A stretch of 22,624 bases of DNA from Fidelibacterota bacterium (GTDB lineage: Bacteria > Fidelibacterota > Marinisomatia > SCGC-AAA003-L08 > TS1B11): positions 1 through 22,624 of the forward strand of contig DAOWIJ010000218.1 in NCBI GenBank assembly GCA_030640955.1, read 5' to 3'. Numbering within the stretch: the first letter of the stretch is position 1; every line of letters begins with the position of its first letter. Position numbers and translations under genes: made by a program. Below, piece by piece: positions 1,996 through 21,327 of the stretch. A model generated the notes under the pieces. The model worked only from the letters and a program-made list of their open reading frames with translations, searched no databases and was not told the DNA's origin.

Positions 1996-4251
1996 ATGAC
2001 TGAACCACTACGGCCCAAGGATGATCCAGGTCGCATTGTAGACCGCCGCAATCTTAAAGGCGCACCACAAAATCACCGAACAAAATCAGCCGATAGCTGG
2101 TTGATTGCCTTCCGTAATGCCCTCATCATTTTGCTTTTTAGTGGTTCCGCAACGGTAGCCATCCTGTTTTACCTGTCCCGGGACTTACCATCCCTGCGAC
2201 AGCTGCAGGATTTCAGTCCGGCAGTTGCTACCAAAATAATCTCCCGTGATGGCAAAGTCATATCCGAACTGTATACACAGCAACGGGTATTGATACCATT
2301 GAATGATATGCCGCTGGATATGCGGCACGCCCTCATTTCTATGGAAGACACACGCTTTTACGATCACTGGGGAGTCAGCCTGCGGGATTTTGCCCGGGCG
2401 GTCGTGGTTAATATTGCCAGTCTCAGCTATTCCCAGGGTTTTAGCTCCCTGACCCAGCAGCTGGCCCGTAATCTATATGAAGTGATCGGAACCAGGAAGA
2501 CCCTGACCCGGAAGATCAAGGAAATTCTGACAGCGATTCAGGTCGAGCGCACCTGTACTAAAAACGAAATAAGGGAGATGTATTTGAACTCCATCTATTT
2601 TGGGCACGGCACCTACGGCATTCAAGCCGCCGCCAGGGATTTCTTCAGTGTGGACGCGCGGGACCTGAACCTGGAACAATGCGCCCTGCTGGTGGGTGTA
2701 TTGCCGTCACCGGCCCGCTTCAGTCCGAAGGCCCACCCTGATCGTGCCTTCCGCAGACGTAATCTGGTGATGGCTGCCATGCTTGAACATGGCTATGTTG
2801 AGGAATACGATTATGAGCGCCTGCGCTATAAACCGATTGACGTGCACCGTACTGATGCCATTCCAGGGTTCGCCCCATATTTTACCGAGCATGTCCGCCG
2901 CCAAATGGAAATGGAGGACGAACGTCTGGGGATCAATCTTTACCGTGACGGACTGGAAATCCATACCACGCTGGACTCACGGATGCAATCTATTGCCACC
3001 CGCATTTTCCAGGAGGAGATCAATAATAACCAACGGGTGTTGAATGAATCACTGATGCAAAACGACACCTTGATTTACAGGGTCATCGATACACTGATCT
3101 ATCCCATTGATTCCGTGCGGGCCATGATCGACGGTGATATCGCCATCCCGGAGGAACTGAAAGATAAGCTGCTGGTGCAGGGCGCCTTTGTTTTGTTGGA
3201 GAACGATACGGGCAATATCCTGGCCATGATCGGCGGACGCACAGATTTCCCCGACTATTGGAACAGGGCCACCCAGGCCAAACGTCAGCCGGGTTCCACC
3301 TTCAAGCCGTTGCTGTACATGACCGCAATTGACCAGGGCTACCCGGTATCAACTCAGCTGCTCAATCAGCCTCTGCCGCAAACCGGAGATGCCATCCTGA
3401 ACGGGGCGGATACCAGCTTTTACGATCCACGTAACGATGACGGCTCAACCAGCGGTCTGGTCACCTTGCGTCACGCCCTGCGTCACTCGCTGAATATCGT
3501 TTCGGCACGTATGGTGATTCAACTGGTTACGCCAACTCAGGTAGTGGATATGGCCAAACGGTTCCACATCACTACGCCCCTCAGAGCGGTTAGATCGATT
3601 GCCTTAGGCACCAGTGAGGTCTATGTCCTGGAGCTAACGGCGGCCTATGCCGCGCTGGCCAATAACGGTGTGTGGGTGGAGCCGTTAGCGGTAACCCGGA
3701 TTATGGATCGTCGGGGTAAGGCGCTGCGGGAGTTTATTCCTGAGCGCAAAGAAGTGATAGAGGCCGAGAAAGCCTATATTATGCTTGATCTGATGAGGGG
3801 CGTCGTAGACCTGGGCACGGGAGCGCGCGTACGCTGGATGTTCGGATTCAATCGGCCGGCTGCCGGCAAAACCGGCACTACCGACGATTGGAATGATGCC
3901 TGGTTTGTTGGTTTCACTCCTCAACTTACAGCAGGTGTCTGGGTAGGTGTGGATGATCCTCGAGTAAGCCTCGGTGAAGAGCGTTTTGGCAATGTGGCGG
4001 CTTTGCCCATCTGGGCCAGAATCATGAAGGAAGTGCATCAGTCTTTCGATATGCCTGTGCTGAGCTGGCAGATGCCGGCGGACCTTGTCAGGCTCGATAT
4101 CTGCAAGGTTACCAAGGATCGTCCCACCAAGTATTGTCCCCGGGAGAAGGAAATCTTTATCCGGGGCACCGAACCCCCCGATGCCTGCCAGGTGCATACC
4201 GGATTTGAATCACAGCCCTACAATCCCGACGATGACGTTTTTCTGAACTGA
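1996..4251 (+). CDS. mrcA: class A penicillin-binding protein (PBP1A-type bifunctional transglycosylase/transpeptidase)
   Basis: 751 aa with an N-terminal TM segment. GT51 glycosyltransferase motifs are present (SMEDTRFYDHWGV and related blocks). Transpeptidase motifs are present: SxxK (QPGSTFKP), SxN (RHSLN) and KTG (AGKTGTT). Confidence 0.9.
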   Translation: MTEPLRPKDDPGRIVDRRNLKGAPQNHRTKSADSWLIAFRNALIILLFSGSATVAILFYLSRDLPSLRQLQDFSPAVATKIISRDGKVISELYTQQRVLIPLNDMPLDMRHALISMEDTRFYDHWGVSLRDFARAVVVNIASLSYSQGFSSLTQQLARNLYEVIGTRKTLTRKIKEILTAIQVERTCTKNEIREMYLNSIYFGHGTYGIQAAARDFFSVDARDLNLEQCALLVGVLPSPARFSPKAHPDRAFRRRNLVMAAMLEHGYVEEYDYERLRYKPIDVHRTDAIPGFAPYFTEHVRRQMEMEDERLGINLYRDGLEIHTTLDSRMQSIATRIFQEEINNNQRVLNESLMQNDTLIYRVIDTLIYPIDSVRAMIDGDIAIPEELKDKLLVQGAFVLLENDTGNILAMIGGRTDFPDYWNRATQAKRQPGSTFKPLLYMTAIDQGYPVSTQLLNQPLPQTGDAILNGADTSFYDPRNDDGSTSGLVTLRHALRHSLNIVSARMVIQLVTPTQVVDMAKRFHITTPLRAVRSIALGTSEVYVLELTAAYAALANNGVWVEPLAVTRIMDRRGKALREFIPERKEVIEAEKAYIMLDLMRGVVDLGTGARVRWMFGFNRPAAGKTGTTDDWNDAWFVGFTPQLTAGVWVGVDDPRVSLGEERFGNVAALPIWARIMKEVHQSFDMPVLSWQMPADLVRLDICKVTKDRPTKYCPREKEIFIRGTEPPDACQVHTGFESQPYNPDDDVFLN

Positions 4252-4372
4252 TTCGGCTTTCCCGCATCCCATAGTAATCACGTATACAGCAGCAGAAAGC
4301 GTTAGTGCCACAGGTGCGGGCGCGTGTTAAGTTCCCGGCACCAACAGGAATATCGATTATCATTGAGAATTC

Positions 4373-10374: not shown

Positions 10375-11556
10375 TCACTCCATCCGCCTGCCTATGATGA
10401 TGATATCCTTCTGAACTCCCTCGCTGAAATCTTCACCAATAATGACGACCATATCTTTTAACACCGCCACCGAACTGAAATAATAAATAGGATTATTGAA
10501 TTCATTATACTTCTTCCAGGTGGCACCATTGAAGTGCCATATAAGCCCACCTGAACCAACAATAAATATATTATCTCGCCCAGAGCCACGTACTTTGTTC
10601 GGAAATCCCTGCAGTGAAATCTTCAGCGGTTTTGCCTTCCCCTCGCCCCTGATATCCTGCCACCAGATGCCATTGCCTCCTACAACGATGAGGCTGTCCT
10701 CGGTGGCCTGCCACAGGCTGCTGATATGGCCCACATAGCTCTGTGTCGTATCGGAGATCAGATTTGCGTTTTCATCGTAGTACTGGTACCAGTGGGTCTG
10801 CCAGCCGATGCCATCGTTAAGCATGAGCACGCTGCCAGCACCGTCCGTCACCTTGTACCCGCAGGTCCACACATACGAGCCATCGGACGAACCCCACACA
10901 TCTCTCAGATAGACATCCGTGGCTGTGTTCATGGGAGACACATACGAGCCGTTGTATCTAGCGATACCACCGTTATACCCAACAAGATAAAGGATATTAT
11001 CTGAAGGCCCCCACATTTCCCAGACACCCCCAAATCCAAAGTACCTAGGGTGAAAAAAAGTGTAATCTCTCCCATCCCACCGTGTCAGGGATGCGGTATT
11101 TGCGTTGAACCAAATGGTGCTATCGGGCGGAAAGCCGTAAACGGATCTCATATCATCGCTATAAGAGGTATCGATGGTTCCCCCTGGATATAAAGGTGAA
11201 TGTGGGATCCGTCTTAATTCCCATTCATATCCGTTCCAGTGGGCGGTATTGTACTTGCGCCGCCAGGTGGTTGAAGAATCCGCGTGAATGGTATCCGTAT
11301 GCATGATCGCTCCCACTGCCCAGATATCGTCCTCAGAGGCGGCATATACGTCGAAAAGGCGCGAGGTCAACTCACCCAAATGGTATACTTCCCAGACAAA
11401 TTCGTGGCTGGTTGTGTCGGGGCAGCAGATGTCGGGATCATCGGTGCAGGGGTGGTAATACTCGGGGCATACCACCGGGTCGGGTTCCGTGGGGCAGGCG
11501 ACAAACAGACCCAGGGCAAGGAGGGCATACAAGGCAAGTCTTAACGGTGAAACCAT
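10375..11556 (-). CDS. hypothetical lipoprotein with Cys-rich N-terminal segment and beta-propeller-like repeats (Ycf48/BNR-like)
   Basis: Signal peptide plus lipobox (LALGLFVAC). The next 30 residues contain 6 Cys (CPTEPDPVVCPEYYHPCTDDPDICCPDTT). Then a recurring motif of the form hhhVG.NGG.I..W.. occurs about 6 times (LYLVGYNGGIARY, LIVVGGNGIWWQD, IFIVGSGGLIWHF and others). Parts of the gene are markedly AT-rich, for example about 33% GC in line 10441. Confidence 0.6.
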   Translation of the reverse strand: MVSPLRLALYALLALGLFVACPTEPDPVVCPEYYHPCTDDPDICCPDTTSHEFVWEVYHLGELTSRLFDVYAASEDDIWAVGAIMHTDTIHADSSTTWRRKYNTAHWNGYEWELRRIPHSPLYPGGTIDTSYSDDMRSVYGFPPDSTIWFNANTASLTRWDGRDYTFFHPRYFGFGGVWEMWGPSDNILYLVGYNGGIARYNGSYVSPMNTATDVYLRDVWGSSDGSYVWTCGYKVTDGAGSVLMLNDGIGWQTHWYQYYDENANLISDTTQSYVGHISSLWQATEDSLIVVGGNGIWWQDIRGEGKAKPLKISLQGFPNKVRGSGRDNIFIVGSGGLIWHFNGATWKKYNEFNNPIYYFSSVAVLKDMVVIIGEDFSEGVQKDIIIIGRRME

Positions 11557-11810
11557 GGCCCGAATGTACGGGAAAATTGAAAGAGTTGCGAGTATCGAGT
11601 TACCCTGTCATCGCGAGTCCCGACGCTGCGGTAGGGACGTGGCGATCTGCCTACATCCCGGATTGCCACGTCGCTGACGCTCCTCGCAACGACAGGTGTT
11701 GCTCAGTTTACGGCCTGCGAGTTTCGAGATTCGGGGATCAAGCCCCGCCGCCTGTCCCCGACGCTTCGGGTCGGCGGATGACGGGGTCCCCCCGCATTCT
11801 GCGGGGTCCC

Positions 11811-11845
11811 ATCCAATATCCAACATCCAATATCCAGTATCGAGT
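11811..11845. repeat. tandem heptanucleotide repeat, copy B: ATCCAAT ATCCAAC ATCCAAT ATCCAGT ATCGAGT
   Basis: Five in-phase 7-mers, same family and orientation as copy A. Lies immediately 3' of the OsmC gene (minus strand). Preceded by the perfect hairpin CCCCGCA-ttc-TGCGGGG (11790-11806). Confidence 0.9.
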
Positions 11846-11861
11846 CCCCAGCCTCCAGCCT

Positions 11862-12293
11862 CTAGCCCGCTTCCCCCGGCTTGTGCACAATCACTTCGGT
11901 GGTTACCTCGGCAACCTTGTTGAGCATGTTGGTGACGGGGCAGTATTTCTCATCGGTGAGCTGCGCCGCCTTTTTCAGCTTGGCCAGGGGCAGATCGGTG
12001 CCCCAGAAGTGGTACTCGACGTGGATTTTGGTGTAGATGCGAGGCTCCGTTTCAGCTTGTTCGCCCGATATCTTCAGTCGGAAGTCGTCCATTTCCACGC
12101 TCATTTTGCGGAGAATAAGATCGATGTCGATGCCGCTGCAGCCGCCCATGGCGAACAGCACCATTTCCATGGGCTGGGCGGCGCCGTCCTGGCCGTAGTT
12201 TTTGGGCGTGGAGTCCATCACCACCCAGTGGCTGGAGGGGCCTTTCGCCATAAAAGTGCTGCCTTCCAGGCGGCGTACTTCAACTTCAGTCAT
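11862..12293 (-). CDS. OsmC/Ohr family peroxiredoxin
   Basis: 143 aa with AGAGG SD 8 nt upstream. OsmC-family blocks are present (PMEMVLFAMGGCSGIDIDLIL and KYCPVTNML) and both conserved Cys residues. Confidence 0.85.
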   Translation of the reverse strand: MTEVEVRRLEGSTFMAKGPSSHWVVMDSTPKNYGQDGAAQPMEMVLFAMGGCSGIDIDLILRKMSVEMDDFRLKISGEQAETEPRIYTKIHVEYHFWGTDLPLAKLKKAAQLTDEKYCPVTNMLNKVAEVTTEVIVHKPGEAG

Positions 12294-12322
12294 ATTAATA
12301 CCTCTAGATCATTATTGAAATT

Positions 12323-12592
12323 CTACTGGTTGGTGTGGCCGGTATCCCCACCATTTTCGCGGTGGGGTAGCGAGAGCACCTTGTACAGGCGCTCTTCCAC
12401 ATTGCCAGGGAGTTGCTCATCGGTATGTGCCTTGCGGTAGATTGAAACCGTTTTCCTGATGGAGTCGAACTGGGCCCGGCAGTCGGGGCAGCCCTCCAGG
12501 TGCCGCTGGACCTCTTTACAAAGTTCGGCGTCCAGGTCTTCGCCCAGCTGCTCGCAGACGGTGCGCTTGAATTTGTTGTCATGGTTGCTCAT
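12323..12592 (-). CDS. ZAS-type anti-sigma factor (zinc-binding, RsrA-like)
   Basis: 89 aa. H-x3-C-x2-C motif (HLEGCPDC) plus upstream Cys residues. The start overlaps the sigma-factor stop by 4 nt (ATGA) and a GGGAGGG SD lies upstream. Confidence 0.7.
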   Translation of the reverse strand: MSNHDNKFKRTVCEQLGEDLDAELCKEVQRHLEGCPDCRAQFDSIRKTVSIYRKAHTDEQLPGNVEERLYKVLSLPHRENGGDTGHTNQ

Positions 12593-16103: not shown

Positions 16104-16385
16104 CTAGAGCGGCTCCACCTTCACTTCCAGAAGCACCCAGTCACGGCCTTCTTCCAGAAGAGTGTTGACGGCCGACACGCGCTTCTCCACCACCTCCTTT
16201 TCCGCCGCCACGGTGACGAAGGCCAGCTCGGCCCGGTTCCACACGTCGTGCTGGCCTACTTCCGCCACCGACACGTTCATATGTTTGGTTACCCGGTCCT
16301 TGATGGAGCGCACCACCGCCCGCTTGTCCTTCAGGTTGTGGGCGTCGGGGATGTCTATGATGGCGCGCAGCAGGGCGATGTGCAT
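16104..16385 (-). CDS. DUF503 (YlxP-like) protein
   Basis: Assigned by resemblance to the DUF503 core MHIALLRAIIDIPDAHNLKDKRAVVRSIKDRV...VAEVGQHDVWNRAELAFV. I prefer the internal Met (93 aa) over the 107-aa ORF-track start, which would overlap the upstream gene. The stop lies 2 nt from the convergent M28 stop. Confidence 0.55.
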   Translation of the reverse strand: MHIALLRAIIDIPDAHNLKDKRAVVRSIKDRVTKHMNVSVAEVGQHDVWNRAELAFVTVAAEKEVVEKRVSAVNTLLEEGRDWVLLEVKVEPL

Positions 16386-16396
16386 GGGGGAAAGAA

Positions 16397-16984
16397 TCAT
16401 CTGATGCTTTGGAGTGATGATAAGCATCTCTGGAGACTATCACACACCCTTGAAGCATCCAAAGGGGACCAATGATTTTGGGCAAAATCAGCGATTCGTG
16501 AAGCGTATGCAGGTCCCTCTTTTGCAGTTCCGCCAGGGATTGGTACAATCTCCTCTCTCATATCATAACTGCCAAATCTGCTCACAATACGAATCAATTC
16601 AGCTTTGGGATCTTCTAGATTTTCAGGGTTCAAAGGGAATTTCGATTTTGAGATACGAAAATATTGCGCACACTTGGTGCGATCGCCCAGTATCCACGCT
16701 TCAACTTCTCTTACTACGATTCTAAAATGCATTTTAGGCGCAGGAGAAGGTAATAGTTTATCGTAAAGCTCTGGAGCACACACAGCATCATGATCCAAAT
16801 CCCGAAGTACAAACCAAGGGGCGAACCTTGCGGCGTTATTATAGCCTAGAAGATTCTTATCAAGCTGGTCTTTACCTCTTTTTCTATGAATTACCGCGAT
16901 ACCAAATCCAGCCATATCACAGATTCTTCGTACAACTGCTTCATCAGGATACCCCTCAACAGCAGCGGTGATGAAAGGACGCAT
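16397..16984 (-). CDS. small TOPRIM-like partner protein of the ATPase (resembles DUF4276 family)
   Basis: 195 aa. N-terminal ITAAVEGYPDEAVV (E-G...DE) and downstream LRDLDHD (DxD) form a TOPRIM-like acidic constellation. The ATG at 16982-16984 shares one nt with the ATPase TGA (TGATG). AT-rich. Family assignment is from memory of motif patterns and was not searched. Confidence 0.5.
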   Translation of the reverse strand: MRPFITAAVEGYPDEAVVRRICDMAGFGIAVIHRKRGKDQLDKNLLGYNNAARFAPWFVLRDLDHDAVCAPELYDKLLPSPAPKMHFRIVVREVEAWILGDRTKCAQYFRISKSKFPLNPENLEDPKAELIRIVSRFGSYDMREEIVPIPGGTAKEGPAYASRIADFAQNHWSPLDASRVCDSLQRCLSSLQSIR

Positions 16985-18126
16985 CAATCCCCAAAGAGAG
17001 CAATTTGAGAGGCATTGCTCGGTGATGTTCTCGGAAGCACTGCATCAGCGATAGAAAGGTCACCATTCTCAAGCAGAGCCACAATTTGATCATCGTCTTG
17101 GGCAGTGATAACTCTAGTCCCATCATAACTTGGCAGGAGCAATAGTACTTCATTTGCATCAATGCCCGAATCTTGTAATAAATCCCCCGAATGTGTGCTG
17201 ATAAATACTTGGCGGCCCCTTTTCCGACTTAATCTTGCAAACATTTGTGGCACGTGACGGATTAATTCGGGGTGAAGAGATAATTCTGGTTCTTCTAAAA
17301 GTAGCGGACCCGTCCCTTCAAGCACAGACCATAATAACCCTAGAAGTCTTAGGGTGCCGTCCGAAAATTGATCTTCTGTTTGCCACCCGGCATTTGGTCT
17401 CCAGTGCTCATAAAGACCTTGAATATGAGGGGTTCCTCGATTATCACGGACTAATTCTAAATCTTTAAGCTGGGGTACTGCCACTCGTAACGCGGTTCTT
17501 ATTTTATTTAGTCTGGATTCCAACGTGCTTTTAGGTGTCCTCGCGAGCCTCTCCAGAAAATCGCCACCATAAGGATCATTCACTTTGCCAGTCGAGCGAT
17601 CGGGTTCTCTTACTAATTGAGGGACAATATGGAGATACCTAACAGTGTTGAGAAATTCAGATATTTCCCGGAACTGCTTATTTGCATTTACCTGTTCTAA
17701 GTGCGTTTGCCTGAGACGTTCAGGGTCTGATTCATCCTCTTTGTCAGGTCTTGATAGAATAACTTCTCCAAATCTCTCAACAATTTCTTTTTCAACAACA
17801 GGTTTGCTTGCTCTATCCTGGACTATCTCAAGTCTATAGGTCCAATCTGGGTTTTCGCTATCATTCGCGCCAATATCTATTTCAAGAATAACTTGGGGGG
17901 CTCTCCGCGCAGCCAAACACCGAATCTTTGATACACCATCCCGTTTGTTTACTGCTTGCTGAAGTCCTCCCCCTACTGATGCAATGTCCTGTAAGAAGCG
18001 AAAAGCGTCCAACAAGTTTGATTTTCCGGCGGCATTCGGACCAACAATGAACGCTCTTTTCTGCAGTTTGATCTCAACCTTGCGGAAGTTTCGCCAATTA
18101 CTAAAATTGATTCGTGTAAACCTCAT
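16984..18126 (-). CDS. ABC-like AAA family ATPase (AAA_15/AAA_21 type, OLD/AbiLi/AriA/PtuA-like)
   Basis: Walker A (VGPNAAGKSNLLDAF), Walker B/D-loop (LLLEEPELSLHP) and H-loop (VFISTHSGDLL). I prefer the ATG at 18126 (MRFTRINFSNWRNF, the canonical N-terminus of this ATPase class) over the TTG at 18150 in the ORF track. AT-rich. Confidence 0.8.
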   Translation of the reverse strand: MRFTRINFSNWRNFRKVEIKLQKRAFIVGPNAAGKSNLLDAFRFLQDIASVGGGLQQAVNKRDGVSKIRCLAARRAPQVILEIDIGANDSENPDWTYRLEIVQDRASKPVVEKEIVERFGEVILSRPDKEDESDPERLRQTHLEQVNANKQFREISEFLNTVRYLHIVPQLVREPDRSTGKVNDPYGGDFLERLARTPKSTLESRLNKIRTALRVAVPQLKDLELVRDNRGTPHIQGLYEHWRPNAGWQTEDQFSDGTLRLLGLLWSVLEGTGPLLLEEPELSLHPELIRHVPQMFARLSRKRGRQVFISTHSGDLLQDSGIDANEVLLLLPSYDGTRVITAQDDDQIVALLENGDLSIADAVLPRTSPSNASQIALFGD

Positions 18127-18690
18127 CCTATAATTTCCCAGTATTGGCAATTCTAGAAGTGTGAATATTATTCATATTACAACAAATTACAGTCGATCTC
18201 ATTCTCATAATTTACACAATACATTTATTTCCCAAATACTTTAGATGAGATCGCTCCAAGGCGGAAATTCCTTCCCTCATCTTGTCCCCCAAGTATAATC
18301 CTTACCCGAGCCGATGACCACCAGCCCTAGACAAGCTCAGGATAGGCCCTTCGACTGGCTCAGGCCCGTATCAAATATCCTGCATCAAGACCCGCCTATG
18401 TCGGGATAGACATCGAGCCCTTCGGCAGGCTTGTCCCGCGGAATGCGGGGACGGGCTCAGCGTTCAAAGTTAATAGGGAAAGGTGAGATCAGGTTGGCAA
18501 TATTGCGTGGCGGGCAGGGGCGTTACCTCACCCCCGGACACTGCGTGTCGCCCCCTCTCCTGAAGGCGAGGGGTAAGACCGGAACCCAAGACCAAGGAAT
18601 AACTACATTAATGCAATCCATCCCCGTCAGGCCTGTACTGCGGAACGCGGGGGGATTGGCTGCCTGTACTATGATCCATCGTATAAATAA

Positions 18691-18704
18691 GCAATATATA
18701 TTGC
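18691..18704. promoter_or_regulatory. perfect 14-bp palindrome GCAATATATATTGC in the promoter region of the DUF4143-type ATPase gene
   Basis: Identical to its own reverse complement. It lies about 100 nt upstream of the ATG at 18803 and about 37 nt upstream of a TATAAT hexamer at 18741-18746. Confidence 0.5.
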
Positions 18705-18802
18705 GTTTAACCCATTTTATAGTTATATTAGACTCAGTATAATGATATAACATCGACATAAATATCTAGTAAGATCAATGTATTAAGTTTAATGGAAGTG
18801 AA

Positions 18803-20215
18803 ATGAGAGAGATTACAGCTGGCGAAATTGCGGCGCGTTATCGCTATGATAATCCGTGGTGGAGTTCTCATTCAAATTTACCTTATGCGGACCTGCCTGG
18901 GCGGGCATACCTGCCGCAATTCTACAAGTATATTTCAATGCCTGATCCCAACAGGGCTGTTGTGCTAATGGGTCCACGGAGGGTCGGTAAAACAGTACTG
19001 ATTCATCATGCCATATACGAACTGATCGATAATGGGGTTCCAGCCAATAATATACTCTATGTATCTGTTGACGCTCCTGTATTTACTGGCACGCCTCTGG
19101 AGCATCATGTTAAGAACTTCATTGATATCATACAGCAGCCAGGTAGTGAAAGACTTATTATTTTCCTTGATGAGGTGCAGTACCTGGCAAACTGGGAAGT
19201 GCATCTCAAGAGCCTGGTAGATACCTATCCCAATTATAAGTTTATAGTTTCGGGTTCTGCCGCGGCTGCTCTCAGATTCAAGAGTATCGAATCAGGTGCG
19301 GGCCGTTTTACAGACTTTATGCTGCCACCACTTACATTTGCAGAATACCTTGGTTTTATTGAAATAGAGAAAGACCTGATCAAGGCTGATTCTGAGAATC
19401 AACGCAACTATATAGCGCTGGATATCGGTGAACTAAATCGGCATTTTATCAACTACCTTAATTTCGGTGGATATCCTGAGGCGGTTTTTTCCGAGCAGAT
19501 AAAGGCAGACCCAGCAAGATTTATCAAGAGTGACATTATAGACAAAGTTCTCCTACGGGATTTGCCAGGTTTATACGGTATCAGAGATATCCAGGAACTC
19601 AACCGTTTATTCACCAATATTGCCTACAACACTGGTGAAGAGATCAGCCTCGAAGATTTATCCCAGAAGTCAGGCGTCCAAAAGAATACGATTGTGAAAT
19701 ACCTGGAATATCAGGAATCAGCATTTCTGATCAAAAGAATCAGGAAAGTGACACTGGCGGGGCAGAGATTTAAACGCGATCGCCATTTTAAGGTATACTT
19801 AACAAATCCGTCTATGAGAGCGGCCCTGTTTGGTCCAGTACAGATCGACTCAGAGGATATGGGAAAACTGGCAGAGACGGCGGTATTCGCGCAGTGGCTT
19901 CATGATAAAACGTATATTGAGAGCATCTATTATGGCCGTTGGAAGGAAGCCGAAGTTGATGTAATAGGTATTATCGAAGGCTCGCCTCGCACTATCTGGG
20001 CTGTTGAGATAAAGTGGAGTGATAAATCCTACTCCAATCCAAGTAGGATCAAAGGGATAATCGACTACTCCAAGAAACATTCGCTTAGTAGAAAACCAGT
20101 GGTAACAACACGTACCATTAGAGGAGAACTCATCGTGTCTGGAGTTCCAATAGAATTTTGTCCAACCAGCCTGCATTGCTATACGATTGGTAAAAATCTG
20201 ATCCAGAACAAGTGA
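18803..20215 (+). CDS. AAA_14 / DUF4143-type ATP-binding protein
   Basis: 470 aa. Walker A (LMGPRRVGKTVL) and Walker B (LIIFLDEVQYL). Length and N-terminal organisation are typical of the widespread AAA_14+DUF4143 ATP-binding protein family. AT-rich, about 43% GC in a sampled line. Confidence 0.75.
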   Translation: MREITAGEIAARYRYDNPWWSSHSNLPYADLPGRAYLPQFYKYISMPDPNRAVVLMGPRRVGKTVLIHHAIYELIDNGVPANNILYVSVDAPVFTGTPLEHHVKNFIDIIQQPGSERLIIFLDEVQYLANWEVHLKSLVDTYPNYKFIVSGSAAAALRFKSIESGAGRFTDFMLPPLTFAEYLGFIEIEKDLIKADSENQRNYIALDIGELNRHFINYLNFGGYPEAVFSEQIKADPARFIKSDIIDKVLLRDLPGLYGIRDIQELNRLFTNIAYNTGEEISLEDLSQKSGVQKNTIVKYLEYQESAFLIKRIRKVTLAGQRFKRDRHFKVYLTNPSMRAALFGPVQIDSEDMGKLAETAVFAQWLHDKTYIESIYYGRWKEAEVDVIGIIEGSPRTIWAVEIKWSDKSYSNPSRIKGIIDYSKKHSLSRKPVVTTRTIRGELIVSGVPIEFCPTSLHCYTIGKNLIQNK

Positions 20216-20308
20216 GTAACCTTTTTCTTTGTCGCCGGATCCTAAATGAAATTCGATTGTCTAAAACCCACCTTAAAGCAAAATTATTGATACATTTACT
20301 ATATAAGT

Positions 20309-20337
20309 AAAAAACCGCCCCCATCTCTGAGGGCGGT
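20309..20337 (-). terminator. rho-independent terminator (minus strand)
   Basis: ACCGCCC-ccatctctga-GGGCGGT gives a 7-bp GC stem. On the minus strand it is followed by a 6-nt U run (A6 at 20309-20314 on plus). It lies downstream of the SPFH gene and repeat copy C. Confidence 0.7.
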
Positions 20338-20338
20338 C

Positions 20339-20421
20339 ATCCAATATCTAATATCCAATATCCTGCTTCATCCCCACCAATGGCGGGCTAAACATCTAGT
20401 ATCGAGTATCGAGCATCCAGA
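20339..20421. repeat. tandem heptanucleotide repeat, copy C (split): ATCCAAT ATCTAAT ATCCAAT ATCCTGC ... ATCTAGT ATCGAGT ATCGAGC ATCCAGA
   Basis: Same 7-mer family as copies A and B, interrupted by a 27-nt spacer (ttcatccccaccaatggcgggctaaac). Lies between the convergent SPFH gene and DUF4143-type gene ends. Confidence 0.85.
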
Positions 20422-20424
20422 CCG

Positions 20425-21327
20425 CTAGTTCACGCCTCCCAGGATAATCGGCAGGCCGTCTTTGCCTGAGCCGATCACCACTACCTTGGCATTGTTGCTG
20501 CCGGCCAGGGCGTTGGTGGCCTCGATCCCCTTCCAACGCAGGAAGTTATCCGATATCCCTTCGGCCACCGTCTTATTGAAATCCCGGATGCCCTCGGCTT
20601 CGATCCGTTTACGGGCCGCCTCCTTCTGCTCCTTCACCAGGACGAACTCCATGCGCTGGCTCTCCTGCTCGGCGCGCAATTTCTCCTCGATGGCGGCTGC
20701 CAGGTCCTGAGGCAGGATCACGTCGCGAAGCGGAGTGGACTCTATCGCAATTCCCCGTTCGGAAACAGCTTCGGCTAGTTTGGCCGAGATGGCAGCGGCC
20801 ACCTCATCGCGCTTGGAGGCGTACACCGCTTTGGCTTCAAATTTGGCGGTCACATCCCGGACCACCGAGCGGAAATTGGGCAGCAATACCTTGCGGATGA
20901 GATCTTCCTCCAGGCCGACAGTCCGTACTATCTCAGGGGCGACCGACGGTTCCAAATGGTAGATCACGCTGATCTCCAGGCCCACGGTAAGGTTCTCCTT
21001 GGAGGGAGCCCGCATCTCCTCCCGGCGCTCCTGGGTCTTGATGTTCATTTTAATGATATCAGCGAAGGGATTACGCACATTTACCCCTTCACGCAACACC
21101 CGGCTGTCAACCTTGCCGAAGACCTTGATCACGCCCACGGTGCCGGCGTCAATGATGGTGATCAACTGGAAGGCTGCCATCAGCAGGGCGATGAACGCTA
21201 TTCCCTGGAGCAGACCCGGACCCAAGCCCATCTGCTTCAGATTACTTGACAGCACCGACGATCGCTTGACATAAACGGACAGGAAGAGCACGACTACCGC
21301 GATGACGGCAAAAAGTAAAAAACGCAT
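20425..21327 (-). CDS. SPFH/band-7 (prohibitin/HflC-like) membrane protein
   Basis: 300 aa. N-terminal TM helix, then an SPFH core (GTVGVIKVFGKVD...NVRNPF) and a C-terminal coiled-coil rich in EAEQ. AAGGAG SD 8 nt upstream. Confidence 0.8.
   Translation of the reverse strand: MRFLLFAVIAVVVLFLSVYVKRSSVLSSNLKQMGLGPGLLQGIAFIALLMAAFQLITIIDAGTVGVIKVFGKVDSRVLREGVNVRNPFADIIKMNIKTQERREEMRAPSKENLTVGLEISVIYHLEPSVAPEIVRTVGLEEDLIRKVLLPNFRSVVRDVTAKFEAKAVYASKRDEVAAAISAKLAEAVSERGIAIESTPLRDVILPQDLAAAIEEKLRAEQESQRMEFVLVKEQKEAARKRIEAEGIRDFNKTVAEGISDNFLRWKGIEATNALAGSNNAKVVVIGSGKDGLPIILGGVN

Follow-up and report, generated by a model that had tools for sequence, protein, structure and literature searches.

A Standalone Copy of the Candidate HEC-01 ATPase-TOPRIM Gene Pair in a Fidelibacterota Genome

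Introduction

The question raised by this locus is whether two overlapping genes on a MAG contig of a Fidelibacterota bacterium (Candidatus Marinimicrobia; DAOWIJ010000218.1, assembly GCA_030640955.1) make up an anti-phage system and, if so, whether that system already has a name. The stretch of DNA that was analysed, here called the window, is 22,624 nucleotides long, and a sequence-only reading of it had proposed that an ATPase gene and a small TOPRIM-like partner at positions 16397-18126 form a split OLD-like candidate defence pair. That proposal is supported by searches against family models, by the comparison of folds and by the linkage of the two genes. The family searches also supplied the name: the locus holds HEC-01, a candidate that had been catalogued before, in a standalone copy, and this split OLD-like module is therefore not new.

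[quoted passage not shown] In the same study the predicted structure of HEC-01B had a metal-binding site in common with BpOLD (the OLD protein of B. pseudomallei), and the HEC-01 representative gave E. coli no protection against the BASEL and classic coliphages (bioRxiv 10.1101/2024.01.29.577857). A HEC-01 from cold-seep genomes, in which the system ranked among the twelve commonest types, did protect E. coli B against at least one of T4, T5 and T7, a result obtained in spot assays under IPTG induction and reported in the text without a fold change for HEC-01 (PMC12881386). Other authors still regard HEC-01 as unvalidated. The guess that the pair may be an under-characterised variant was a fair one, since HEC-01 is poorly understood and the published defence tests conflict.

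A Coupled Gene Pair and Its Family

ORF calling and translation placed both genes on the minus strand, a detail to be added to coordinates that were otherwise correct. The first gene, HEC-01A (16984..18126), encodes a protein of 380 aa from an ATG start (MRFTRINF), and an alternative, longer ORF with a TTG start extends to 18150. The second, HEC-01B (16397..16984), encodes 195 aa beginning MRPF. They meet, again on the minus strand, at a TGATG junction (16982..16986), in which a single base (A) is common to the TGA stop of the ATPase gene and the ATG start of the small gene. This start/stop overlap had been claimed beforehand and was verified, and overlap or near-abutment recurs in relatives, as TAATG in loci L001 and L003, as GTGA in L005, and as a 2-nt gap in L007. 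A wider sample of loci gave the same picture: an ATPase homologue ends at the start of the small gene, on the same strand, in 79 of 80, which is to say in all 79 that could be assessed, the single exception being cut by a contig end that leaves 85 nt upstream. Wherever this could be assessed the two genes stand next to each other, and as a rule they are translationally coupled.

Both products match HEC-01 models of PADLOC over nearly their full length and in the same architecture, with the ABC ATPase first and the small TOPRIM-like protein second. Residues 1-376 of the ATPase align to positions 1-379 of the 382 in HEC-01A model PDLC04180 (E 1.1e-158, 526 bits), and residues 4-194 of the small protein to positions 5-197 of the 204 in HEC-01B model PDLC04194 (E 9.2e-57, 190 bits). 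Membership of a named family, which the earlier reading had offered as an inference, thus found an answer in HEC-01, and the HMM searches led to the rejection of AbiL, PARIS and Gabija as its family. HEC-01 as defined is Hma-embedded, whereas the present copy stands alone in a low-GC island beside a gene of another candidate, PDC-S01. Detection of HEC-01 by PADLOC needs no Hma embedding. An existing tool would already label this gene pair, and as annotation the finding is an ordinary one.

The motifs picked out in the earlier reading (GPNAAGKSN, LLLEEPELSLH, STHS, VEG..DE and DLDHD) were all found again on translation. That these ORFs and motifs are more than chance follows from the large homologue families of both proteins and from the invariance of motif residues across 78 homologues of the small protein and 35 of the ATPase.

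The ATPase

The first gene encodes a compact ABC ATPase in which the set of catalytic motifs is complete. A Pfam HMM search matched both of the ABC-like families to which it had been assigned, AAA_21 (5e-39) and AAA_15 (1e-17). Conservation was read from an alignment (A2) of 35 homologues, 60-91% identical, with all motif coordinates on the minus strand. Within Walker A, GPNAAGKSN (G29-N37; 18016..18042), residues G29, P30, N31, A32, G34, K35, S36 and N37 are invariant, as is the whole of SDGT (S255-T258; 17353..17364), a variant of the ABC signature motif. Walker B and the D-loop, LLLEEPELSLH (L275-H285; 17272..17304), include the catalytic E279 and are invariant throughout, and the H-loop with its switch histidine, STHS (S310-S313; 17188..17199), has S310, H312 and S313 invariant and T311 conserved at 90% or more.

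The fold is that of an SMC/Rad50-type ABC head lacking the long coiled coil, and RecF heads are alike. Fold comparison also brought out the ABC ATPases of defence systems, with values of about 19.5 for those of retrons Eco7 and Ec83, 19.1 for PtuA, 17.5 for AriA, 16.2 for GajA and 14.5 for TsOLD. Sequence similarity to the solved relatives is confined to the surroundings of the conserved motifs, and there is a weak NCBIfam match to RecF across the N-terminus.

The Small TOPRIM-Fold Protein

The second gene encodes a TOPRIM-fold protein that bears the greatest resemblance to the nuclease part of class 2 OLD and to AriB of PARIS. Its model (pLDDT 96.5, pTM 0.91) is an alpha/beta fold with a four-stranded parallel sheet that matches solved TOPRIM domains, followed by a C-terminal helical domain like that of the C-terminal region of class 2 OLD. 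A comparison with the OLD TOPRIM had been suggested at the outset. In Foldseek the sole significant match was to the C-terminal region of Xanthomonas OLD; the best TOPRIM matches in the fold comparison were defence nucleases, not RecR. It is on fold comparison that the TOPRIM assignment rests, since a PDB sequence search with the small-protein profile returned only spurious kinetochore matches (E >= 0.43).

The acidic residues expected of a TOPRIM domain are at the expected strand ends, in keeping with the TOPRIM-like character claimed from the sequence. Strand 1 (residues 4-9) precedes the putative TOPRIM glutamate E10, which with a second acidic residue, D14, lies in EGYPD (16943..16957, minus strand), and strand 3 (57-62) leads to D62, the first residue of the putative DxD in DLDHD (D62, D64, D66; 16787..16801, minus strand). 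E10, G11, D14, D62, C69, E95, D101 and K127 are among the residues invariant in all 78 homologues; D64 is kept in 66 of them and replaced by N in the other 12, and position 66 has D in 63 and E in 11. Two further features, both on the minus strand, are suggested by their position: EVE (E93-E95; 16700..16708), where the helix that follows strand 4 begins, is a candidate metal-B ligand in which E93 is conserved in 67 of the 78, and K127 (16604..16606), in the helical domain, is a candidate counterpart of the catalytic lysine K562 of BpOLD. In BpOLD, E400/E404, D455/D457, T506/E508 and K562 bind two metals and the scissile phosphate (PMC6755086), and E10/D14, D62/D64, E93/E95 and K127 follow one another in the same order and with the same spacing within each pair. 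The two-metal mapping that this suggests is a putative one, drawn from order and spacing rather than from superposition.

The resemblance to DUF4276 (PF14103) stood in part. For the 195-aa protein itself the match is limited to residues 74-135 and reaches 17.5 bits (E 0.005) against a gathering threshold of 30.2; at the level of the family, 53 of the 78 relatives match at E <= 0.01, the best at 1.8e-9, and precomputed annotation assigns DUF4276 to about 10% of relatives. Judged by these 53 matches, the small-protein family is a divergent edge of DUF4276, even though this member falls below the cut-off. The Pfam OLD-like_TOPRIM model matches one of the 78. DUF4276 has been placed in the Toprim superfamily, with a catalytic E and DxD, and its homologue Mad4 is a component of MADS (PMC12065111).

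Comparison with Named Systems

Of the systems with a comparable architecture, PARIS (AriA/AriB), the so-called class 4 OLD system, is the one that AriB's fold brings to mind, yet its proteins are larger, AriA having 464 aa against the 380 of the present ATPase and AriB about 305 against the 195 of the partner. DUF4435/AriB gave no match to the 195-aa protein at E <= 1 and none to its 78 relatives at E <= 0.01, and for want of that match in the partner PARIS was rejected. The AriA model PDLC02980 does match the ATPase at 5e-37, although in length and coverage it is like the generic AAA_21 model, and the value compares with 1e-158 for HEC-01A, and the AriA sequence in the PDB matches over residues 243-315 only, the Walker B region. 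The PARIS trigger, Ocr, and its target, tRNA-Lys, are not to be assumed for the HEC-01 pair.

AbiL (AbiLi/AbiLii) is likewise an abortive-infection system of two genes, an ATPase and a small partner. AbiLi matches the ATPase at 1.2e-26, over part of the model only and far more weakly than HEC-01A, and the AbiLii models in PADLOC gave no match to the small protein at E <= 1; on this ground AbiL was set aside. Class 2 OLD and GajA have ATPase and TOPRIM fused, and Gabija pairs GajA with the helicase GajB; here there are two separate ORFs, no helicase in the window, and the best 150 representatives of the small-protein family are all standalone proteins of 175-271 aa, none long enough for a fusion, so that neither Gabija nor the fused OLD classes 1-3 apply. 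MADS, with Mad3 and Mad4, and the DUF4276-type effectors of Menshen likewise combine an ATPase with a DUF4276-type TOPRIM. MADS was rejected since the match to the NCBIfam MAD3 model (NF047739) reaches 78.6 bits, far short of the cut-off of 420, and the window holds no methyltransferase or MADS gene; the small protein gave no match to the PADLOC mad4 models. The pair probably works like a split OLD/PARIS-type system, while by sequence it is not PARIS, AbiL, Gabija or MADS.

The Setting of This Copy

The pair lies at one end of a 4-kb low-GC island (16397-20424; 44.2% GC, as compared with 55.5% for the remainder of the window). The gene that shares the island with it (18803-20215, plus strand) encodes a protein with AAA_14 and DUF4143 domains and matches the PADLOC candidate PDC-S01 at 4.9e-58. 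Elsewhere in the window are genes for a fumarase, a class A PBP, a transporter, peptidases, an ECF-type sigma factor, a thioredoxin, GDPD, DUF503 and a Band_7 protein. Methylase, helicase and Hma genes are absent from the 22.6-kb window, and the HEC-01 pair is in this sense not Hma-embedded.

In two close relatives the pair directly follows the same Band_7 gene, and the PDC-S01 gene is missing. Upstream of the ATPase gene in the window, at 18299-18323, is a 25-nt copy of the 3' end of the Band_7 gene (reading VVIGSGKD). L001 carries this duplication as well, there as a perfect repeat of 37 nt whose copies stand 198 nt apart. The duplication at both loci, together with the relatives that lack PDC-S01, indicates that the PDC-S01 gene occupies a repeat-bounded slot. 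A third copy of the repeat downstream of the small gene was absent from the window, L001 and L003, which led us to reject an att-flanked insertion of the cassette. Another repeat, of 17 nt (D2; 17706 and 20461), is attributable to chance, about one such match being estimated per 5 kb.

Positions 16321-18326 of the window align to L001 at 80% identity, and the alignment stops 200 nt upstream of the ATPase ATG. The conserved 5' region of the cassette (18127..18326, minus strand) probably holds its promoter. Sigma-70-like consensus matches occur on the minus strand at 18196-18167 and 18320-18292, and these are no commoner than in shuffles, as held for the promoter and terminator scans in general. 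Rfam and tRNA scans found nothing in the window, nor, at a permissive threshold, in the 650-bp intergenic region.

The low GC of the island argues for a horizontal origin, as does the composition of the pair elsewhere, which lies below that of its flanks by a median of 2.9 points in 66 genomes and by more than 3 points in 33 of them. The cassette would have reached this genome by horizontal transfer and come to lie in a low-GC slot downstream of the Band_7 gene, beside PDC-S01.

A Possible Mode of Action

The most likely explanation, and one that we hold with fair if far from complete confidence, is that this standalone HEC-01 cassette encodes a TOPRIM nuclease gated by the ATPase and triggered by infection, both the complex and the nuclease activity being putative. 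The ATPase and the small protein would form a complex in which the ATPase senses some infection-associated cue, and ATP binding or hydrolysis would gate the partner. The latter, as a two-metal TOPRIM nuclease, would be released or activated and cut nucleic acid, which may be DNA, the substrate of OLD and GajA, or tRNA, that of AriB. Such cleavage would halt phage replication, probably at a cost to the growth of the host.

What the cue might be is bound up with the relative conservation of the two proteins. In pairwise comparisons the identities of ATPase and small protein are 88 vs 77%, 78 vs 70% and about 62 vs 50%, and across phyla they are 55-63% vs 40-48%, the ATPase always being the more conserved, which would be unusual for an ATPase that directly binds fast-evolving phage proteins. 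A bolder form of the defence reading takes HEC-01 as an autonomous class of its own, the fifth among split OLD-like systems, with an ATPase that senses a conserved cue and a small DUF4276-like TOPRIM that amounts to a minimal OLD-type nuclease. Such a cue might be some structure in nucleic acid, the ends of DNA or the condition of a host process, and not a variable phage protein. We regard this fifth class as doubtful. In a variant of it, the cassette may serve methylation-based systems such as Hma and MADS as a portable nuclease arm, while remaining able to function by itself.

Hma Loci and the Question of Methylation

The nearest neighbours of the pair were examined in 80 genome loci scanned with PADLOC, with ORFs taken by a simple greedy picker, so that the neighbour counts are approximate. 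The gene directly upstream of the pair is HmaA, an SNF2 helicase, in 13 of 68 loci, and the one directly downstream is HmaB, an adenine methylase, in 8 of 73. With these counts the signal of Hma embedding is independently reproduced for the subfamily of the present copy, about a fifth of copies being placed between HmaA and HmaB. The other copies, some 80% and this one included, are surrounded by housekeeping genes and do not form part of defence islands, and six contexts retrieved by exact protein look-up were all standalone, with unrelated and mostly housekeeping neighbours.

The embedded fifth speaks for an alternative that we consider unlikely, namely that the pair is the nuclease arm of an Hma- or MADS-like methylation system and cuts unmodified DNA while a helicase and methylase mark the host's own; standalone copies would then use a methylase encoded elsewhere, or be orphaned. 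MADS, too, has its ATPase Mad3 beside the DUF4276 homologue Mad4 (PMC12065111), and the present ATPase matches PADLOC mad3 at 6.9e-20, near full-length but weakly. Against this, the MAD3 score falls far below its cut-off and mad4 is not matched, most copies stand alone, and the window offers no methylase or helicase. The history of the pair is also at odds with such a role: on a neighbour-joining tree of the concatenated pair, with ORF size as a proxy for Hma embedding and the counts accordingly approximate, embedded and standalone copies are intermixed (15 parsimony changes vs a shuffled mean of 15.6). The intermixing suggests a self-contained cassette that has repeatedly entered and left Hma loci, and it fits an autonomous unit for which Hma is an insertion site.

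Distribution of the Pair

The small-protein family is large, with 2,978 clusters at 50% identity reaching E <= 1e-3 and 1,365 reaching E <= 1e-30, and relatives were confirmed in at least 589 species genomes among 185,579. Among the matches listed are Planctomycetota, Acidobacteriota, Chloroflexota, several proteobacterial classes, Actinomycetota, Desulfobacterota, Myxococcota and others, and the genomes, again among the matches listed, are almost all environmental MAGs. No copy was found among 50,697 phage records, and 72,556 plasmids yielded a single weak match (28.5% identity, on a Ralstonia megaplasmid).

A selfish, toxin-antitoxin-like addiction cassette, in which a nuclease toxin is restrained by the ATPase and there is no net anti-phage benefit, might be expected to look much like this two-gene unit, with its tight coupling, foreign base composition and variable insertion sites; the Pfam description of AAA_21 ties the domain to the AbiEii toxin of type IV TA systems, and one of the two published tests showed no protection. 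It is nonetheless decidedly improbable, given that the pair is missing from the phage collection and almost so from plasmids, where addiction modules are common, that it recurs inside defence loci (Hma), and that the other defence test was positive (PMC12881386). The addiction and defence readings are not mutually exclusive, since abortive-infection systems are often TA-like. A housekeeping module of DNA repair or recombination, analogous to RecF-RecR or SbcCD, where an ABC ATPase has a TOPRIM or nuclease partner, would account for the SMC-, Rad50- and RecF-like head, the weak RecF match, the strong conservation of the ATPase and the housekeeping neighbours of most copies, but is very improbable in view of the patchy spread of the pair, its foreign composition, a genomic position that differs even between close relatives, its embedding in Hma loci, and a TOPRIM domain whose nearest matches are defence nucleases.

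The reading of the pair as an infection-triggered, ATPase-gated nuclease draws its support as a defence system from the Hma neighbours, the intermixed tree and the positive cold-seep test (PMC12881386). It is weakened by the negative test of Payne et al. and by the nature of the positive one (spot assays, induced, with no fold change given), by the housekeeping surroundings of about 80% of copies, by the near-complete absence of the family from phage records and plasmids, and by how strongly the presumed sensor, the ATPase, is conserved.

Concluding Remarks

HEC-01 is common in environmental bacteria, yet the published tests of whether it defends its hosts disagree. A standalone copy with all of its motifs intact, such as the one described here, would be a reasonable construct with which to settle both whether HEC-01 acts in defence and what its TOPRIM nuclease targets.

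Band_7 3′ end as an apparent insertion slot

The HEC-01 pair, an ABC ATPase gene with a small TOPRIM nuclease-like partner, lies downstream of a Band_7 gene whose 3′ end looks like an insertion slot. In the window, a 25-nt copy of this 3′ end, reading VVIGSGKD, precedes the ATPase gene, and the two copies (18299-18323 and 20459-20483, both on the reverse strand) flank the gene matching PDC-S01, a single-gene defence candidate of PADLOC. Two close relatives have the pair directly after the same Band_7 gene; L001 carries a perfect 37-nt direct repeat of the 3′ end (4051-4087 and 4249-4285), its copies at a spacing of only 198 nt, and L003 has one copy. In sequence, the upstream copy in the window resembles that of L001 more than it does the 3′ end of Band_7 in the window itself. 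No integrase is present, however.

The PDC-S01-like gene (18803-20215, forward strand) encodes a 470-aa protein with AAA_14 and DUF4143 domains that matched the PADLOC model at 4.9e-58; this gene and the HEC-01 pair share one low-GC island and are divergently transcribed. It is missing from the corresponding position in L001 and L003, and a PDC-S01-like neighbor occurs in only one of the 80 other HEC-01 loci. The segment is further bracketed by an imperfect 19-nt direct repeat (18369-18387 and 20352-20370, with 17 of 19 bases alike and a spacing of 1,983 nt), which is suggestive only, because by our own rough estimate ~0.07 such matches would be expected by chance in 5 kb.

Surroundings of the island

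Between the ATPase and PDC-S01 genes lie 650 bp of intergenic sequence, AT-rich except for a GC-rich stretch at 18400-18660, for which an Rfam scan returned nothing, even at E <= 1, and whose ORFs (18431-18742, forward; 18523-18759, reverse) had no family match. The edge of the island carries a strong terminator-like hairpin (20313-20338, reverse strand) ~90 nt downstream of the Band_7 stop; it has 11 pairs, including 7 G-C, and a T run follows it.

Beyond the pair, the DUF503 ORF as listed (16104-16427, reverse strand) shares 31 nt with the 3′ end of the small gene. Since its Pfam match begins at residue 17, the true start is probably Met15 (16385), 12 nt past the stop of the small gene. The GC switch coincides exactly with this probable start, and DUF503 may therefore be read through from the HEC-01 cassette.

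Elsewhere in the window, two long ORFs on opposite strands, of 393 aa (10375-11556, reverse) and 342 aa (11412-12440, forward), have 5′ ends that overlap by ~145 nt; at E <= 1e-5 neither matched a Pfam family.

Conservation of the two partners

When the pair in the window (16397-18126) was compared with the loci of relatives (L001-L087), the nuclease partner was consistently less conserved than the ATPase, the respective identities being 77 versus 88%, 70 versus 78%, and about 46-52 versus 57-63%. The identity of the ATPase holds at 55-63% over many phyla, a pattern not usually seen in a protein presumed to sense fast-evolving phage factors.
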